A DNA stretch of 64,000 bases from a virus. The position numbers and the translations under genes are program-made. Below the pieces are notes generated by a model. It had not been told where the DNA came from. It was given only the letters and a program-made list of their open reading frames with translations, and did no database searches. Below, piece after piece: positions 1,140 to 41,626 of this stretch; the stretch's first letter is position 1; every line of letters begins with the position of its first letter. Where the stretch lies: IMG/VR virus record IMGVR_UViG_3300034630_000009, positions 8,211-72,210 of that record; one strand, 5' to 3'.

Positions 1140-4100
1140 AGTCCTGCCTGTCCCACCAGGCTCTTGCTGGCATCTGCCAAGATCTTGGAGGCATCGGCGA
1201 CGGGGTTTGCCGTGATCGCCGTGACGTTAGGGCGGTTCATCGAGTTAGCGAGGCGTTCTCCAAGACGGTCGATCGCGCTACTCAACGTACTGCTCAACTG
1301 CTGCAAACCGCCACCCATACCTTGCCCTGCCGCTTCCTGTACAGGGTTCCCGGTGGGGATGCCGTTGGGTGCGGTAGCAGCCACAAACCCATTGCCGCCA
1401 AAGGTTTGACCGGCGTTGTACGTCACGCCTGTAAAACCGCCACCTGCGGCTCCACCGTTGGGGTCAATACCACCAATAACTTTCACTTTGGCGGCATCTG
1501 CCGTCTCTGCCAGCTCTCTGGCACGTCCCCTACCCGCCGCCGCGTTCTGCTCGGACTGTGCTCGTTCCGCTGCCGCCTGCTTGATGTCTAGCGCTCCTAA
1601 ACCTAGCTGCCCTACCTCTCTCTGAGTGGCGGCGTTTGCCTGAGCATTACCAATCTGAGCGCCCGTGATGGCAACGTTTTGAGATGCCAGTGCAACCCCT
1701 TGTTGAGCATTGGCAATCTCATTGGCATCGCCCGTTTTGAGCGCTTTGAGTAGGGCTGACTTCTGCTCATTCTCGGCAATCCGAGCGCTCATATTCGCCC
1801 GTTGTGCCTCCAATACGTTATTGCGGGCAGTCACTTCAGCCTGCCGCAGCTTTAGTTTTTCGGTCTCTCGTTCGGCATCATTCTGCTTTTGCAGTGCTCT
1901 CAGCTTTTCGCGATCGGCAGCAGCTTCGGCGGACTGTTTGATCTGCACCAGCTTGACTAGATCGGCATTGTTGACCTTACCGCTAATGCTTAGCCCAGCA
2001 AGTTGCCCAACCTGTGCTTGTAGCACCTGCCGTTGATTGGTCCCCAAGTCTTTACTCTGGAGTTTTTTGAAAGAGTCAACTGCTTCCGAGGCGCGATCGA
2101 CCGCAGCCTTCAACTGCTGCTGACGCGCCTCTGACACCGCAGCGCTCACCTTTGCTTGAGCCTCTACCAGTTGGCTTTCGCGTTGAATGCTGCCTGCCAA
2201 GAGGTCATTGCTGGCTTTCTGCTGGTCAATCCCTGCATTAGCGGCGGTTAGCTGCCGTTTCTGGGCGTCGGCAACGTTCTGAATCCCCCGCAAAACTCGT
2301 TGTGTTTCCAGGTCTTGAATTTTGGCTCGCTCAGCATCTTGCTTTTGCAGGTTTTCGGTGATCTGGTTTTCGGCTTCCCGCGACCCGATGACTTTATCTT
2401 GCTGTAGCTTTTTAATCTCTTGCAGGTCAATTTGAGCTTGTGCTAAACGCTTCTGCGCGGCTTCGGCTTCGATCCTTTGGATCTCAGCCTGCCCACCTTC
2501 GCCAACGACACCATCGCCTGATAGCTGCGTTTGACGTGCAGAAAACGTTTGAGCCGCTGTGGCTCGCTCGATCGCAGCGTTAGCGACTTTACTACGCTGC
2601 TCAAAATCAGCTTGCTCGCGTTGGCGACGGATGCCCAGCAGTTTGACACGTTCATTGTCGAGGGCTTGCTCGATCGCCAGCTCTTTTTCAGCAGCTTCAC
2701 GGGCATCTAAAACGCCCGCTGCCCGCTGTTGCTTCGTGGCGGCTAATTCTTTTTGCTTCTGAGCAATGGTGTCGGTTGCCGTCCGCTCCTCAATCTGGCT
2801 CGTTTCAACGGTGCCACTCGCACTCGATAGCCGCGAGGCATTGGCGCGTCTAGCAATTGCCGCTTCTGCCTGTTTATTCTGGAATTCAAACTGTTTGAGC
2901 GTTTCCCGATTGGCAGCATCACGCGCCTTGATCTGGTTGTCCAGGTCGGACTTCTCCGCACTGGCAAGTTTTTTCTGAAGCTCCGATCGCTTGGTTGCTG
3001 CTTCCTTAGCCCCGATTTGCCCCGTTTTCTCAGCGGCATCAATCTGCGCGATCGACTCCTCAATCGCTTTCACCTTGCCCTGGCTCTCTTTTGCCTGAAT
3101 TTGGGCGATCGCGGCTTCAGTCTCCTGAGCGGTTTTAGTGCGGGAAAGTTGGGCTTTTTTGGCAAGGGCGATTTCGCGATCGGCTGACTCGGAGAGCTTA
3201 TTCTCCTTCAGCGTTAAATCACGGCTGAAATCTTGAATGTCTTTGAGCTGCCCCGATGCCGTTTTTTCAGAGGTATCGACACCTGCTCCCTTACTGCTAC
3301 TGCCTTCACTTGTCGCAAGACTCTTGCTGTCAACCTTGAGATCAGCCTTTGCCTCTGCTGCTTTTCTGACCGCTCGTTCTTGAAAGGTTTCCTCTTCTGG
3401 CGCACCTGCATCACGCTTAGCCGCTGCCGCTTTTTGCACTGCCGCCGCCTGAAAATCTGCCTTGGCAGCATCTTCGTCAGGTTTCGCTAATGTCCGTTTG
3501 CGAACTTCGTCTAGCTGCTTTTGGGTCTCCTCAAACCGGATTTTCTCAATTTCTTGTGGCTTGATCGAGCCAAAGGTAAGGGGTACCCCACCGATATCGG
3601 TGGTTAAGCTTTGCCGTCGCACTCGCGCCTGCGTCCGTTTTTCCGCAGCATCAGCATCGGCTTTGGTGCCCCCCGCACCCTGAATTGCCTTACTCGCGCC
3701 TTCTTTGTCGCCAGCATCAGGATTGAGCAACCCTTTCAGCCGTTGAGCGCCTTCGCCCAGCTTGTCTACAACCTTGCCTGCAACTCCAACCGCCTCATTC
3801 AGCAGTTTGACAAACTCCACCGTGCCCGACACCAGATCGGCGATCGCGCGTGGGTTCTCCTTCAGATACTCCGTGAGCGATCGCGCACCGCTGGCAACGT
3901 CATCTGCCAACACCTTGCCTGCTTCACCCAACGCCAGCGCTAACTCTTTCGCCAGATCAGGATCTTGTTCCAGAGAAAGCTTAAAGCCTTCGGCACTGCC
4001 CTTCAGCCCATCCAGCAACCCACTGGATTTAAGGATTTCATTGGCAGTATCGGTGCCTAACTTGGCTAAGCCCTCAAAGGCAGGCGCGATCGCCTCACCC

Positions 4101-28799: not shown

Positions 28800-30737
28800 C
28801 TACCTAAGGTCTAAACCATTCTTCTGTACTAAGGCAATAACTTCATTGCTTGGAGTGGCAAAACTGACATTTGAAAAACCGCCGTTCTCGTTAAGCCATG
28901 CAGATTTATTCACACCGATCATTTCACCTTGCTGATTAAATAATGGACCACCGGAGTTGCCATACCGCAAAGCGATCTTCGCTTTGATGTCAGCACCCCT
29001 CAAACCAAGAATGTACCCTTGGTTTATTTTTGCCTTGTTGGCGGGATTGCCAATTGAGCAAACTTTCTCGTTAGGCTGAACAGCCTTAGCCGCCAAACTT
29101 ACAACAGCTAGCGACTGAGCGGTAACTACTTTTACAATTGCAAGATCTCGCAATTGATTAAAAGCAACTACAGTGCCCTGGAAATTCTGCCCTGAAGCCA
29201 AACGGATATAGATTTTATTTTTCCTGTCCGCGATTGCTTCTTTCACTACGTGGTGATTAGTGACGATTAAGCCATCACTGGAAATCACGCTACCTGAACC
29301 AATCTCATAACCTGCATAAATTTGAGCAAATGCGGGGTTGTTCGTTATACATACTGACTGATAGCCGCTTTCATGCGAGACTGACGCGACTTTCTGCTTT
29401 TCCACTTTAGAACACACTTGGATTGTATAGTCCAGGATCGATGGATACTTGCCTTGCGGGGTGCTGCTGTTTTTGTTGCTAGCGCTGCCTGAGTACCAAA
29501 AAGAAGCCGTCGATCGACAAGCTTCAAAGCTACTCTCTCCGGCTTTACGCGCTCGTTTAAACTCCTGTGTGAGTTTGCAGGTAGCAATCTTTTCCTGATG
29601 ATCCGGGCTGCCAAGAAACTGCTGAGCCGTAAGCTGTTGCCCTAAACACTCCTGTGACCAGGAAGGCACATTGGCAGGCATAATCTGATATTTACCCAAG
29701 GCACCCGAATCAGCATTAGTAGTCGCATAATCACCGCCCGATTCTTGATTGGCGATCGCCTTGATGACTGGATTGCTACTACCTGCCGATCGTGCCGTCG
29801 CACCGACAACCGCCATCTCCAAATAGCCGCGCTGGGGTGGAATATATTTGCCGCCCACTTTTTGACCCCAGTGCAAATGCGGTCCGGTTGAATTGCCCGT
29901 GTTGCCAGAAAGTGCGAAGACTGAGCCTGTTTTATGGCTACCAGGATCGCACTGGGATAAATGTGCAGCGAGAAAGCTATAAAGCTGCCCAGAGGGTTTG
30001 ATCACGGCATAGGTGCCTGCTGCGTTACCCTCAGATTCAGAGTGGCATTCTACCGTGCCTGACATCGGCATTTTGATGGCAGTACCCACAGGCAAAGCAA
30101 CATCGGCACCTTGATGATTAGTAGAACCGATGCCGCCTGGACTGGAACGCAAGCCGAAGCCGCTGGTTACAGCGTAGCTGCCAATTTTTTGCCCTTGTTG
30201 CACGACTGAAGTGTCGATTATTTCATCGCCTTCCTGCAAGGGCAACTCATCTAGCTTGCTGTCGTGCATCGGCACCAATCCAGAGACAGGAAGGATGGCG
30301 TGCAGAATGATTTTCGCCCAATCTGTAGGGGACGCGCCTTTAACCAATTGAGCCGCCATCAAAATGGCAAGGCACACCCAAGGGGCAATGAGGTGAAACC
30401 CTAGCGTGTTGATGTAGAGCGATTCTTGTACGTCGCCTGAAACATCGTTGAGTTTGCGTTTGATTCCTTTCTCTACGCGGTTAAGCTTTAACTCAAAGAA
30501 ATAATCCCAAGCGTCTTTCGGATCTGGCTTGTCTTTGGGCTGACTGCTCGACCGCTTAAGACTTGTTTCGATGCCATCCAAACGATCGTTGATTTTGGAT
30601 AACGCTGCTGCTAGGTCATTGCTAACAGCCCCACCTGACTGGTACTCAGCAACATCGCTATCACTAGCAAATTTGCCTTTATGTCTGCCGCTGGTATGCC
30701 TATAGCGATTAACGTCTGGATCAAACTCAATAGCCAT
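28800..30737 (-). CDS. Membrane-anchored multi-domain wall hydrolase: M23 peptidase + lysozyme/transglycosylase-like + trypsin-like protease
   Basis: HQGAD...GNTGNSTGPHLH (M23); QESGG...ALGKYQIMP (lysozyme-like); TNHHV, DLAIVK, GNSGGPL (trypsin). Confidence 0.88.
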   Translation of the reverse strand: MAIEFDPDVNRYRHTSGRHKGKFASDSDVAEYQSGGAVSNDLAAALSKINDRLDGIETSLKRSSSQPKDKPDPKDAWDYFFELKLNRVEKGIKRKLNDVSGDVQESLYINTLGFHLIAPWVCLAILMAAQLVKGASPTDWAKIILHAILPVSGLVPMHDSKLDELPLQEGDEIIDTSVVQQGQKIGSYAVTSGFGLRSSPGGIGSTNHQGADVALPVGTAIKMPMSGTVECHSESEGNAAGTYAVIKPSGQLYSFLAAHLSQCDPGSHKTGSVFALSGNTGNSTGPHLHWGQKVGGKYIPPQRGYLEMAVVGATARSAGSSNPVIKAIANQESGGDYATTNADSGALGKYQIMPANVPSWSQECLGQQLTAQQFLGSPDHQEKIATCKLTQEFKRARKAGESSFEACRSTASFWYSGSASNKNSSTPQGKYPSILDYTIQVCSKVEKQKVASVSHESGYQSVCITNNPAFAQIYAGYEIGSGSVISSDGLIVTNHHVVKEAIADRKNKIYIRLASGQNFQGTVVAFNQLRDLAIVKVVTAQSLAVVSLAAKAVQPNEKVCSIGNPANKAKINQGYILGLRGADIKAKIALRYGNSGGPLFNQQGEMIGVNKSAWLNENGGFSNVSFATPSNEVIALVQKNGLDLR

Positions 30738-40372: not shown

Positions 40373-40402
40373 AACCCTCTATCGCACGATCGAGGGTTTC
40401 TT
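40373..40402. terminator. Hairpin repeat copy 3, between convergent genes
   Basis: AACCCTCTATCGCACGATCGAGGGTTTCTT. Confidence 0.65.
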
Positions 40403-40674
40403 TATGACTCTCCATCATGCTCTGTATTCAAAACCTGTCTAGGGAAATTAATGCCAAAATCAATCCCTAGAACGCTTTCTATCAGTCTTAGCGTCTCTTC
40501 TGGTAAAGATTGCTTCTCATCCTCAATGCGATACCAGTTTTGAACGGACATCCCTGCGGCAGCAGCAATCTGAGTAACGCTTCTAGCGTCTCCCTTCCGC
40601 GCCTCCCTGATGCGTTTTCCGAGCTCAGGTGCTTCTACTTCTACAGTCCGTACAACTCTCACATTTTGAACCAT
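40402..40674 (-). CDS. XRE-family HTH repressor
   Basis: LGKRIREARK..SVTQIAAAAGMSVQNWYRIE. Confidence 0.85.
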   Translation of the reverse strand: MVQNVRVVRTVEVEAPELGKRIREARKGDARSVTQIAAAAGMSVQNWYRIEDEKQSLPEETLRLIESVLGIDFGINFPRQVLNTEHDGES

Positions 40675-40718: not shown

Positions 40719-40790
40719 ATAGTAATGTATCACTCAACTCACGTCAAGTTTAAGTTTTAACTTGACGTGTTTAACGTAATGAGTTAATCT
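40719..40790. promoter_or_regulatory. Back-to-back sigma70 promoters sharing a palindromic operator
   Basis: CACGTCAAGTT-N8-AACTTGACGTG (40740-40769); rightward TTGACG-N17-TAATCT, leftward TTGACG-N17-TACTAT. Confidence 0.8.
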
Positions 40791-40796
40791 TAATTC

Positions 40797-41042
40797 ATGG
40801 GTGAGGGACGGGGAACAGAGAACGCCAGACACTACGCCCCCGCCACGCCGCTGAGACTCTCGCTAACCAGGCACTCAACCGGAACCTCACCCACACTCAA
40901 GACAACGCCATCACACGGTCACGCCAAGCGCCCGCCGTCACCAAAGGGCACCACGACGTAGGGTTCGTCACAGGGTCGCTGAGCAGCCAAATGGAGATTG
41001 GCTAGTGGAACGGCTTTACCGCCTCAGTCCTGAAATTACGTT
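40797..41042 (+). ncRNA. Putative structured leader/small RNA released by twister 1
   Basis: Starts at the predicted TSS; TGGGTGAGG (40798-40806) pairs with CCTCACCCA (40885-40893); five ACGCC motifs; no convincing ORF. Confidence 0.5.
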
Positions 41043-41090
41043 AATGCCAGCGAGGACGGTCTCAACTCCGTGTAAAGGCAGAGAGGCGTA
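41037..41090 (+). ncRNA. Twister ribozyme (type P1), copy 1; predicted cleavage U41042/A41043
   Basis: UACGU-UAA-UGCC-AG-CGAG-G-ACGG-UCUC-AACU-CCGU-GUAAA-GGCA-GAGAG-GCGUA: P1, P2, P4 and both pseudoknots can pair. Confidence 0.85.
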
Positions 41091-41111
41091 CTTTTCAACT
41101 GGAGAAACAAA

Positions 41112-41327
41112 ATGAAAACCACCGTAACGTTTGAAGAACTCAGAAAACTGCACATTGGCGACCAACTTGAAAATCCTTCCCGTTGCGGAGTGGCTGAAGT
41201 CATCCATAACGAGGAGCATTGCGTTGCGATCAGGGTCATCGACGGAGACGAAAGTCTCCGTATTGGAGCGACCATCAGCTATAGAGAGTCTGAGAGTTTG
41301 CACGGAGGATGGGAAATTCCTCAATAA
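41112..41327 (+). CDS. Small protein (71 aa) between the two ribozymes
   Basis: GGAGA RBS and ATG. Confidence 0.7.
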   Translation: MKTTVTFEELRKLHIGDQLENPSRCGVAEVIHNEEHCVAIRVIDGDESLRIGATISYRESESLHGGWEIPQ

Positions 41328-41372
41328 CTTTTAGAGCCGATCGCAGTTTTGGAGGCAAGCTTTAACGCCTCC

Positions 41373-41426
41373 CGCTAACGTGCCAACGCCCGATTCCAAG
41401 TTCGGGGGGAAGAAGACGGAGGAGCG
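41373..41426 (+). ncRNA. Twister ribozyme (type P1), copy 2; predicted cleavage U41376/A41377
   Basis: CGC-UAA-CGU-GC-CAAC-G-CCCGA-UUCC-AAGU-UCGGG-GGGAAGAAG-ACG-GAGGA-GCG. Confidence 0.8.
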
Positions 41427-41476: not shown

Positions 41477-41626
41477 ATGAGTAAAAACCAAAAGCCCAAT
41501 GTCTATACGCCCACAGGAGCGGGCACCGTCGCCTCCAAAGATGTCAAAAACAACGAGGTAACGGTAACGGTCGTCTATCCCAATGGCGATCGAACAACCT
41601 GGTCTGACGACGAGGTTGTTTATTGA
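41477..41626 (+). CDS. Small protein (49 aa, not in ORF track) after twister 2
   Basis: MSKNQKPNVYTPTGAGTVASKDVKNNEVTVTVVYPNGDRTTWSDDEVVY; SH3/KOW-like pattern. Confidence 0.6.
   Translation: MSKNQKPNVYTPTGAGTVASKDVKNNEVTVTVVYPNGDRTTWSDDEVVY

Follow-up and report, generated by a model that had tools for sequence, protein, structure and literature searches.

Can the sequence upstream of a self-cleaving ribozyme act as a built-in switch on its cleavage? The question is raised by a locus in a 64,000-nt stretch of the IMG/VR virus record IMGVR_UViG_3300034630_000009 (the window; all coordinates are positions within it), in which two predicted self-cutting twister ribozymes bracket a small open reading frame (ORF) of 71 aa on the plus strand, where a rightward operon of small ORFs begins. 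A preliminary description of this DNA had noted upstream words complementary to the first twister, proposed that their pairing inactivates the ribozyme, and suggested that a long-range pair brings the ends of the excised RNA together and keeps a circle from re-cleaving. On present evidence the switchable-ribozyme reading is unsupported. The reading that we favor, and consider reasonably probable, is that of an ordinary tandem phage-type twister processing site in which the anti-ribozyme words are by-products and no switch is designed.

Under this reading, an early-type operon of a prophage-like element would begin at this locus, with a conserved leader of ~250 nt and then two paralogous units; in each unit a motif precedes a type-P1 twister, which is followed by a small ORF. 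The twisters would cut at 41042/41043 and 41376/41377 and thereby release the leader, a 334-nt piece with the 71-aa ORF, and the downstream mRNA; both the processing role and the transcription start are putative. In twister 1 the active fold would be maintained by the long extension of P1, and the 3-bp P1 of twister 2 would be capped by a stacked P0 hairpin. Any C-rich upstream strand would be expected to match the G-rich 3′ strand (GAGG plus P1) of every twister, and the motif shared by the two units would reflect common descent of their P0/L0 region, not a designed switch.

Two type-P1 twisters around a small reading frame

The elements on which this reading rests are the following (MFE, minimum free energy).
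41038..41089, plus strand: twister 1, type P1 without P3 (Rfam RF03160), predicted to cleave between U41042 and A41043
41024..41042, plus strand: 5′ strand of the extended P1 of twister 1, pairing with 41085-41102 in the MFE structure (pair probabilities 0.5-0.97)
41112..41327, plus strand: 71-aa ORF between the ribozymes (ORF list), with GGAGA at 41101-05 seven nt upstream of its ATG
41351..41372, plus strand: P0/L0 hairpin of twister 2 (GGAGGC 41351-56, 10-nt loop, GCCUCC 41367-72), with a 6-bp stem and a gap of 0 to P1
41373..41426, plus strand: twister 2, a divergent type-P1 twister, predicted to cleave between U41376 and A41377

From its helices, its UAA cleavage-site loop and the presence of both pseudoknots, twister 1 is a type-P1 twister that is predicted to be self-cleaving. 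It matches RF03160 with 41 bits (E = 3.4e-7 in a 1.5-kb scan, 1.5e-5 in the window and 3.7e-7 in the genome), short of the curated gathering score of 67.2 bits because P3 is missing, and Rfam at curated thresholds reported nothing in the whole window. The cmscan alignment (model positions 1-68) otherwise covers the full twister-P1 model. Its helices, numbered by the last two digits of 410xx, are P1 38-41:86-89 (A38-U89 to U41-G86), P2 45-48:77-80 and P4 56-58:69-71, and the pseudoknots read from the alignment are T1 (C61-G85, U62-A84, C63-G83) and T2 (A49-U67, G50-C66); both differ from the consensus by paired changes that retain pairing. P1 is predicted to extend to 16 bp, and the 3′ strand of this extension (ACUGG 41098-41102) reaches into GGAGA, the ribosome-binding site of the 71-aa ORF. 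The GGAGA site is predicted to be partly paired in both the uncut RNA and the cut-but-annealed RNA. In the fold model twister 1 has no P0-type hairpin of comparable strength to that of twister 2, only a 3-bp GGC/GCC stem beside the extended P1.

Twister 2 gave no Rfam match even at E ≤ 10. It folds as P1/P2/P4 in the MFE structure, with a P1 of only 3 bp (CGC/GCG), and shares 87% identity across 46 nt with an intergenic element of TJE1, an actinobacterial (Tetrasphaera) phage; that element is itself matched by Rfam twister-P1 (26.8 bits, E = 0.032). In an alignment of twister 2 with TJE1 and with G011, a cyanobacterium of the same genus, 97.9% of 47 cells are paired over 16 pairs, six of which are changed on both sides (four of the five in P4, one in T1 and one in P1); none of 500 shuffles and no slid register equaled this pairing. 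Three sequences make for modest but consistent evidence, and on this covariation with two relatives twister 2 is a divergent type-P1 twister with predicted cleavage. These two were the only relatives found: a twister-2 pattern run over viral contigs matched phage TJE1 alone, and a covariance model built for twister 2 found no further copy in the genome. A 24.9-bit match to that model on contig 4 was dropped, as it sits in coding-like sequence.

Both elements share with known type-P1 twisters (RF03160; PMC6765202, in the sections available) the P1-UAA-P2-P4 order, both pseudoknots, the GAGG-type 3′ strand, a position between small phage-like genes and the presence of more than one copy per operon. 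They differ in that twister 1 lacks P3 and scores below threshold, while twister 2 carries GAAGAAG where the type-P1 consensus has UAAA and is missed by Rfam.

The GGAGGC/GCCUCC hairpin, which the preliminary description had offered as a local alternative to the long-range pair, is well founded: its predicted probability is 0.9-0.99 in nearly all precursor contexts. Since it abuts the 3-bp P1 of twister 2, we take it to be the auxiliary P0/L0 stem-loop already known from twisters. According to the accessible portion of PMC11662667, P0/L0 occurs in about 10% of tested twister candidates, those carrying it have a mean cleaved fraction in vitro of 0.40 as against 0.85 for candidates without auxiliary stems, and the authors suggest inhibitory alternative conformations for them. 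To place the hairpin among phage twisters we surveyed IMG/VR with a core pattern, which gave 102 stretches and 110 pattern matches (6 without a recognizable P2); 81 had a P1 of at least 3 bp, 79 were usable, and 31 were left after removing sequences at least 75% similar. A P0-like hairpin is present in 22 of these 31 non-redundant twisters, with a gap to P1 of 0 in 15 and of 1 in 5, a stem of 4-7 bp in 19 and a loop of 3-7 nt in 20. The hairpin of twister 2 thus resembles published P0/L0 stem-loops in lying directly upstream of P1 with a gap of 0; it differs in its 10-nt loop, and inhibition here is only putative. The rate of 22/31 is far above the ~10% given for the mixed set in the same portion of PMC11662667. 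A P0 precedes the TJE1 element as well, with a stem (GCCCCC/GGGGGC) of unrelated sequence, and therefore what is conserved is the hairpin and not the ACGCCUC word. Tandem arrangement is likewise found elsewhere, with two or three canonical twisters per strand, 0.6-6.9 kb apart, in 7 of the 102 locus-strands (L084, L093, L103, L107, L109, L117, and L129).

Upstream complementarity and the folding of twister 1

The upstream segments in question are these.
41013..41025, plus strand: copy 1 of a shared 13-nt motif (GCTTTACCGCCTC), including the CTTTAC and CGCCTC words
41018..41025, plus strand: 5′ arm (ACCGCCUC) of the strongest predicted competitor helix, pairing with 41052-41060 (GAGGACGGU, A56 bulged)
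41359..41371, plus strand: copy 2 of the motif, inside the P0/L0 hairpin of twister 2 and including ACGCCTC

Every complementary word of the preliminary description exists: CTTTAC (41014-19) with GTAAAG (41072-77), CGCCTC (41020-25) with GAGGCG (41083-88), GTCCT (41027-31) with AGGAC (41053-57), and, over 7 bp, ACGCCTC (41365-71) with GAGGCGT (41083-89). Their presence does not clearly exceed chance, however, as 3-11% of controls do as well. When the 33 nt upstream of twister 1 (41005-37) were compared with the 52-nt ribozyme, against 5000 shuffles and 3740 genomic 33-mers, three complementary runs of at least 5 occurred in 10.8% of shuffles and 10.6% of genomic 33-mers, and two runs of at least 6 in 3.1 and 2.8%, respectively. 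A longest run of at least 6 against twister 1 was reached by 28% of 9024 window 40-mers, and 12 of the 31 unrelated phage twisters have such a run against their own upstream 40 nt. Across those 31, the mean longest run was 5.45 for the own upstream 40 nt and 5.24 for same-locus controls, no twister lay beyond its own controls' 95th percentile, and upstream complementarity to the own 3′ strand was 4.00 vs. 3.80 to the 3′ strands of other twisters. The best duplex energy of the upstream region fell at the 57th percentile of genomic windows for twister 1 and the 86th for twister 2; in the phage set 6 of 31 reached p ≤ 0.05 where ~1.6 were expected, a measure confounded by GC-rich P0 stems. By shuffles, genomic windows, duplex energies and the phage set, then, the anti-ribozyme complementarity is near chance, not clearly more than chance. 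Moreover, CTTTAC:GTAAAG and CGCCTC:GAGGCG cross and therefore cannot coexist in a nested structure, and the probability of CTTTAC:GTAAAG never rose above 0.15 in any folding context.

What is clearly non-random is the placement of the shared motif. The 13-mer GCTTTANCGCCTC has exactly two zero-mismatch copies in the 64 kb, at 41013 and 41359, one before each twister, and therefore both units (motif, twister and small ORF) look paralogous; both twister units also end in GCGTAC. In another genus, contig 219 of G102 (L014, ~1520-1560, minus strand) carries GCTTTTAACGCCTCCCGCTAATGC, that is, the motif with the cleavage-site context of twister 2, followed by a P4-like loop. This fragment (38 nt, 85% match, with the motif and CCCGCTAA) was rejected as a twister, having no twister 3′ half and no Rfam match, and may be a decayed copy. 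A search of genome contigs for the motif with the cleavage-site pattern gave 15 matches, about the chance expectation; one that was inspected is cyanobacterial and lies in coding-like sequence.

Folding was modeled with nearest-neighbor energies, by partition function and on transcript prefixes. For 41005-41105 the MFE structure is native twister 1 enclosed by the extended P1 (41024-42:41085-41102), and native P1/P2 reach probabilities of 0.85-0.99 in the full precursor, with any 5′ end, once 41096-41102 has been transcribed, because the 16-bp extended P1 wins. CGCCUC:GAGGCG and GUCCU:AGGAC, which are nested with each other, have a probability of 0.00 in 41005-41105; they form the MFE structure only for transcripts ending at 41088-89 (0.3-0.6) and are down to ≤0.02 by 41096. 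The proposal that such pairings would inactivate the ribozyme is therefore sound in its geometry, since CGCCUC:GAGGCG and the 7-bp pair both occupy G83-A84-G85 (the 3′ strand of T1) and G86-G88 (the 3′ strand of P1) and are incompatible with the active fold; it falls short in the modeled full precursor, where the native fold prevails. Nor does the upstream segment behave as an anti-ribozyme in a control in which 41000-41023 were replaced by 297 random genomic 24-mers: native P2 probability was 0.99 for the real sequence and 0.85 on average for the replacements, 13.5% of which misfold, so that replacement worsens and does not improve mean native folding. In these models the alternative pairings would be at most short-lived co-transcriptional intermediates. 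With pairings near chance and almost absent from the modeled precursor, and with the hairpin a known P0/L0, the idea of a built-in switch is not borne out.

The considerations that weigh against an ordinary processing site concern mostly the competitor 41018-25:41052-60, a helix that the preliminary description did not list and that blocks P4 and the start of T1. The models ignore pseudoknots and real kinetics, and in them this helix dominates transcript prefixes ending at 41060-41079 (probability 0.83-0.97). With the whole leader attached it stays at ~0.5-0.7 as far as 41099; completion of the extended P1 at 41102 gives the native fold the upper hand, and the helix is at ≤0.09 from 41105 on. 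In the full-leader context its best structure lies only 0.6-2.1 kcal/mol above the native one, and direct-path barriers between the two (findpath, upper bounds) are 15-26 kcal/mol, so that a kinetic trap is conceivable. The leader of G011 holds a perfect 9-nt complement (ACCGUCCUC) to 41052-60 of twister 1, a length reached by 0.4-0.6% of control 40-mers in what is a post hoc comparison, and the model predicts a non-native fold, using the motif region, for G011's own unit. The motif is near-identical although the two ribozymes have strongly diverged, which could mean selection on the motif itself. Finally, the lower in vitro cleavage of P0-bearing twisters (0.40 vs. 0.85) in the portion of PMC11662667 cited above may leave room for a modulatory role.

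From these observations one could argue that the leader motif is a real co-transcriptional attenuator, in which ACCGCCUC captures the emerging GAGGACGGU until transcription has produced the 3′ strand of the extended P1 (41085-41102), with cleavage delayed or, through the overlap with the ribosome-binding site, coupled to downstream events such as translation initiation. The prefix probabilities, the late native takeover, the near-isoenergetic states with high barriers, the G011 complement and the published lowering of twister cleavage in vitro by upstream elements (PMC11662667, as far as accessible) would all suit it, as would the sequestration of 41052-60 by upstream bases, which is 0.87 in the real sequence and 0.60 on average in the replacement controls. 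We nevertheless consider it unlikely. Since 6.1% of those controls equal the real sequence, the signal is of marginal significance (p about 0.06), in a test made post hoc; the upstream duplex energy of twister 1 is unexceptional among genomic 40-mers; at equilibrium most controls are less natively folded than the real sequence; in G011 the motif precedes a different ribozyme, so that conservation of the pairing is not demonstrable; and the phage twisters have no general enrichment of contiguous upstream complementarity, their excess in duplex energy being confounded by P0 stems.

The leader, its homologue and the excised RNA

40794..41042, plus strand: conserved non-coding leader, ~250 nt, ending at the predicted cleavage site of twister 1, ~88% identical to G011

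A search by BLAST over 61 relatives, 90 family genomes and 401 class genomes, with pattern scans of three public collections, found only one homologous locus, that of G011, in two identical copies on one contig. On this contig (70), the leader-twister unit with at least 3 kb around it occurs at ~44.9 kb and 147.1 kb, ~102 kb apart and identical over the compared sequence, as would result from a large duplication or from one element present in two copies. Exact leader patterns had no match in viral contigs, and a leader 20-mer retrieved 16 stretches from metagenome contigs, with the leader present only in the two from the G011 contig. Identity between the leaders is ~88% over 255-265 nt (L003 1558-1816, minus strand), with similarity beginning abruptly at 40794; the indels, of 1-3 nt, exclude coding. 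The neighboring 171-aa ORF is only 73% identical to G011 at the DNA level, and the flanking genes are syntenic. The leader is C/A-rich; in its consensus fold UGGGUGAGG and CCUCACCCA form a 9-bp helix, and a hairpin at ~40986-41002 contains one compensatory pair. Twister cleavage would set the leader free as a separate RNA, possibly an independent small RNA.

In G011 the same leader runs directly into a twister-2-like ribozyme, and the segment between the equivalent twister positions is absent. The presence/absence difference is exactly the twister-to-twister segment of 334 nt (41043-41376; window vs. G011 L003/L005, L045/L048), and it is within CG(Y)TAA, ≤4 nt from the cleavage sites, that twister-1-like sequence gives way to twister-2-like sequence. 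All 19 nt of the 5′ strand of the extended P1 are shared with G011 although the 3′ partner is absent there, an indication that G011 lost the segment recently or that a cassette was inserted in the window; ribozyme cores may serve as module boundaries for cassette exchange. These facts, together with the syntenic flanks, the 171-aa ORF among them, could be taken to mean that the motif repeat and the ribozyme cores mark recombination joints at the DNA level, that the 334-nt cassette was gained or lost between twister cores and that the motif copies are relics with no RNA function. We regard this as quite improbable: it rests on a single comparison that would suit a gain as well as a loss, neither motif copy lies at an end of the indel, and it leaves their near-identity beside differing ribozymes unexplained.

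The 334-nt segment also bears on the long-range pair. In the precursor, ACGCCUC:GAGGCGU has a probability of ~0.01, because P0 holds its 3′ arm and P1 the other. In the doubly cut linear RNA (41043-41376) the long-range helix reaches 0.79, and the predicted fold reads 5′-AA, P2 hairpin, GA, long-range helix, CCGCU-3′, so that the ends of the excised RNA are set side by side, as the preliminary description had envisaged. That the same pair would hold a circle is not supported: in the modeled circular form P0 wins (-98.7 vs. -98.0) and the long-range probability is 0.25. The energy differences for line and circle alike, including the 1.8 kcal/mol by which the long-range helix leads P0 in the linear product (-104.2 vs. 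-102.4), are within model error. Engineered twister-flanked RNA circles have been made with RtcB. No RtcB-family ligase was found here (a genome rated 100% complete gave no PF01139 match at E ≤ 1e-5, whereas 10 of 14 control genomes did); the fold is plausible and the circle unsupported.

It is thus very unlikely, in our estimation, that the arrangement serves to clamp the ends, as that earlier view would have it: after both cuts, the 3′ strand of P0 (ACGCCUC, 41365-71) would pair with GAGGCGU (41083-89), freed once twister 1 loses its 5′ P1 strand, and would favor ligation of the 334-nt RNA into a circle that does not re-cleave. The rise of the pair from precursor to excised RNA speaks for it, as do the predicted distances of the RNA ends, 2 and 5 nt from adjacent helices, and the competition of the 7-bp helix with a hybrid P1 (CGCU:GGCG) that could restore a twister at the junction. 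Its advantage over P0 is small in the linear form and reversed in the circle, no RtcB-family ligase was found in the genome, and three of its seven pairs come from an ACG resembling the P1 strand of twister 1, the other four (CCUC:GAGG) being offered by any twister. A combination of these ideas, to which we likewise give little credence, is a staged RNA device in which the motif ACCG(U)CCUC traps nascent twister 1 via its P4/T1 segment, the extended P1 overlapping the ribosome-binding site releases the trap and so would tie cleavage to events there, and the 3′ strand of P0 clamps the ends of the 334-nt RNA after both cuts; since the 334-nt segment is present in one genome and absent in a relative, this RNA may be a ribozyme-bounded exchangeable cassette.

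The surroundings fit the prophage-like setting of an ordinary processing site.
40402..40674, minus strand: Xre-type helix-turn-helix regulator, 90 aa (Pfam HTH_31, E = 2.3e-7; PHROG transcriptional repressor families), divergent from the ribozyme operon
40740..40769, no strand: inverted repeat with 14-nt arms and a 2-nt gap, 93% complementary, in the divergent intergenic region
41477..41626, plus strand: 49-aa ORF downstream of twister 2 (ORF list)

The host context is a prophage-like region of a cyanobacterium, on the evidence of the Xre repressor, a Rha-like regulator further left of it (Pfam and PHROG searches) and ORFs that lack known relatives. The inverted repeat at 40740-40769 overlaps a promoter-like site on the minus strand and TTGACG hexamers on both strands, and looks like an operator; other inverted repeats (I2-I4) are at chance level for the 781-nt region. 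The 71-aa product had no Pfam or PHROG match, and a search of 5.8 billion proteins, restricted to near lengths, returned only itself; the 49-aa product had no PHROG match. Two DNA contig sets compared over the locus revealed no joints and no differences. Elsewhere in the window, a 645-aa protein (28800-30737, minus strand) combines M23 peptidase, lytic transglycosylase and trypsin-like domains, a cell-wall-degrading architecture that, by its domain content, is typical of phage or conjugative elements.

Known systems and meaning for bacterial and phage twisters

Two known systems come close to the mechanisms that had been proposed. The HDV-like CPEB3 ribozyme has a short natural upstream flank whose pairing with the ribozyme suppresses self-cleavage (via PMC11662667, in its available part), which is the very mechanism of the preliminary description; that is another ribozyme class, and the inhibition was measured there, whereas here it is only predicted for transient prefixes. 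Viroids and retrozymes (PMC6765202 and PMC7229834, as far as these texts could be consulted) likewise have two flanking self-cleaving ribozymes that leave 5′-OH and 2′,3′-cyclic phosphate ends held by a stem. Our locus differs in having no RtcB found in the genome and no reverse transcriptase or replication context, and in carrying an ordinary-looking small ORF in the segment.

According to the same sections of PMC6765202, twisters of bacteria are located close to phage genes and may serve to process polycistronic transcripts; cleavage into a leader, a 334-nt piece and the downstream mRNA would fit this role, the one usually proposed for twisters of bacteria and phages. A library search for twisters in cyanobacteria found no paper, judged by titles and the openings of abstracts, which is not proof of their absence. 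The locus bears on the function of bacterial and phage twisters and on the unexplained lower cleavage of those that bear P0. It is compact and joins two different twisters, one with an extended P1 over a ribosome-binding site and one with P0, and it has a natural relative without the exact inter-cleavage segment. If it is true that flanks tune cleavage, the locus would be a natural example of context-controlled twister activity.

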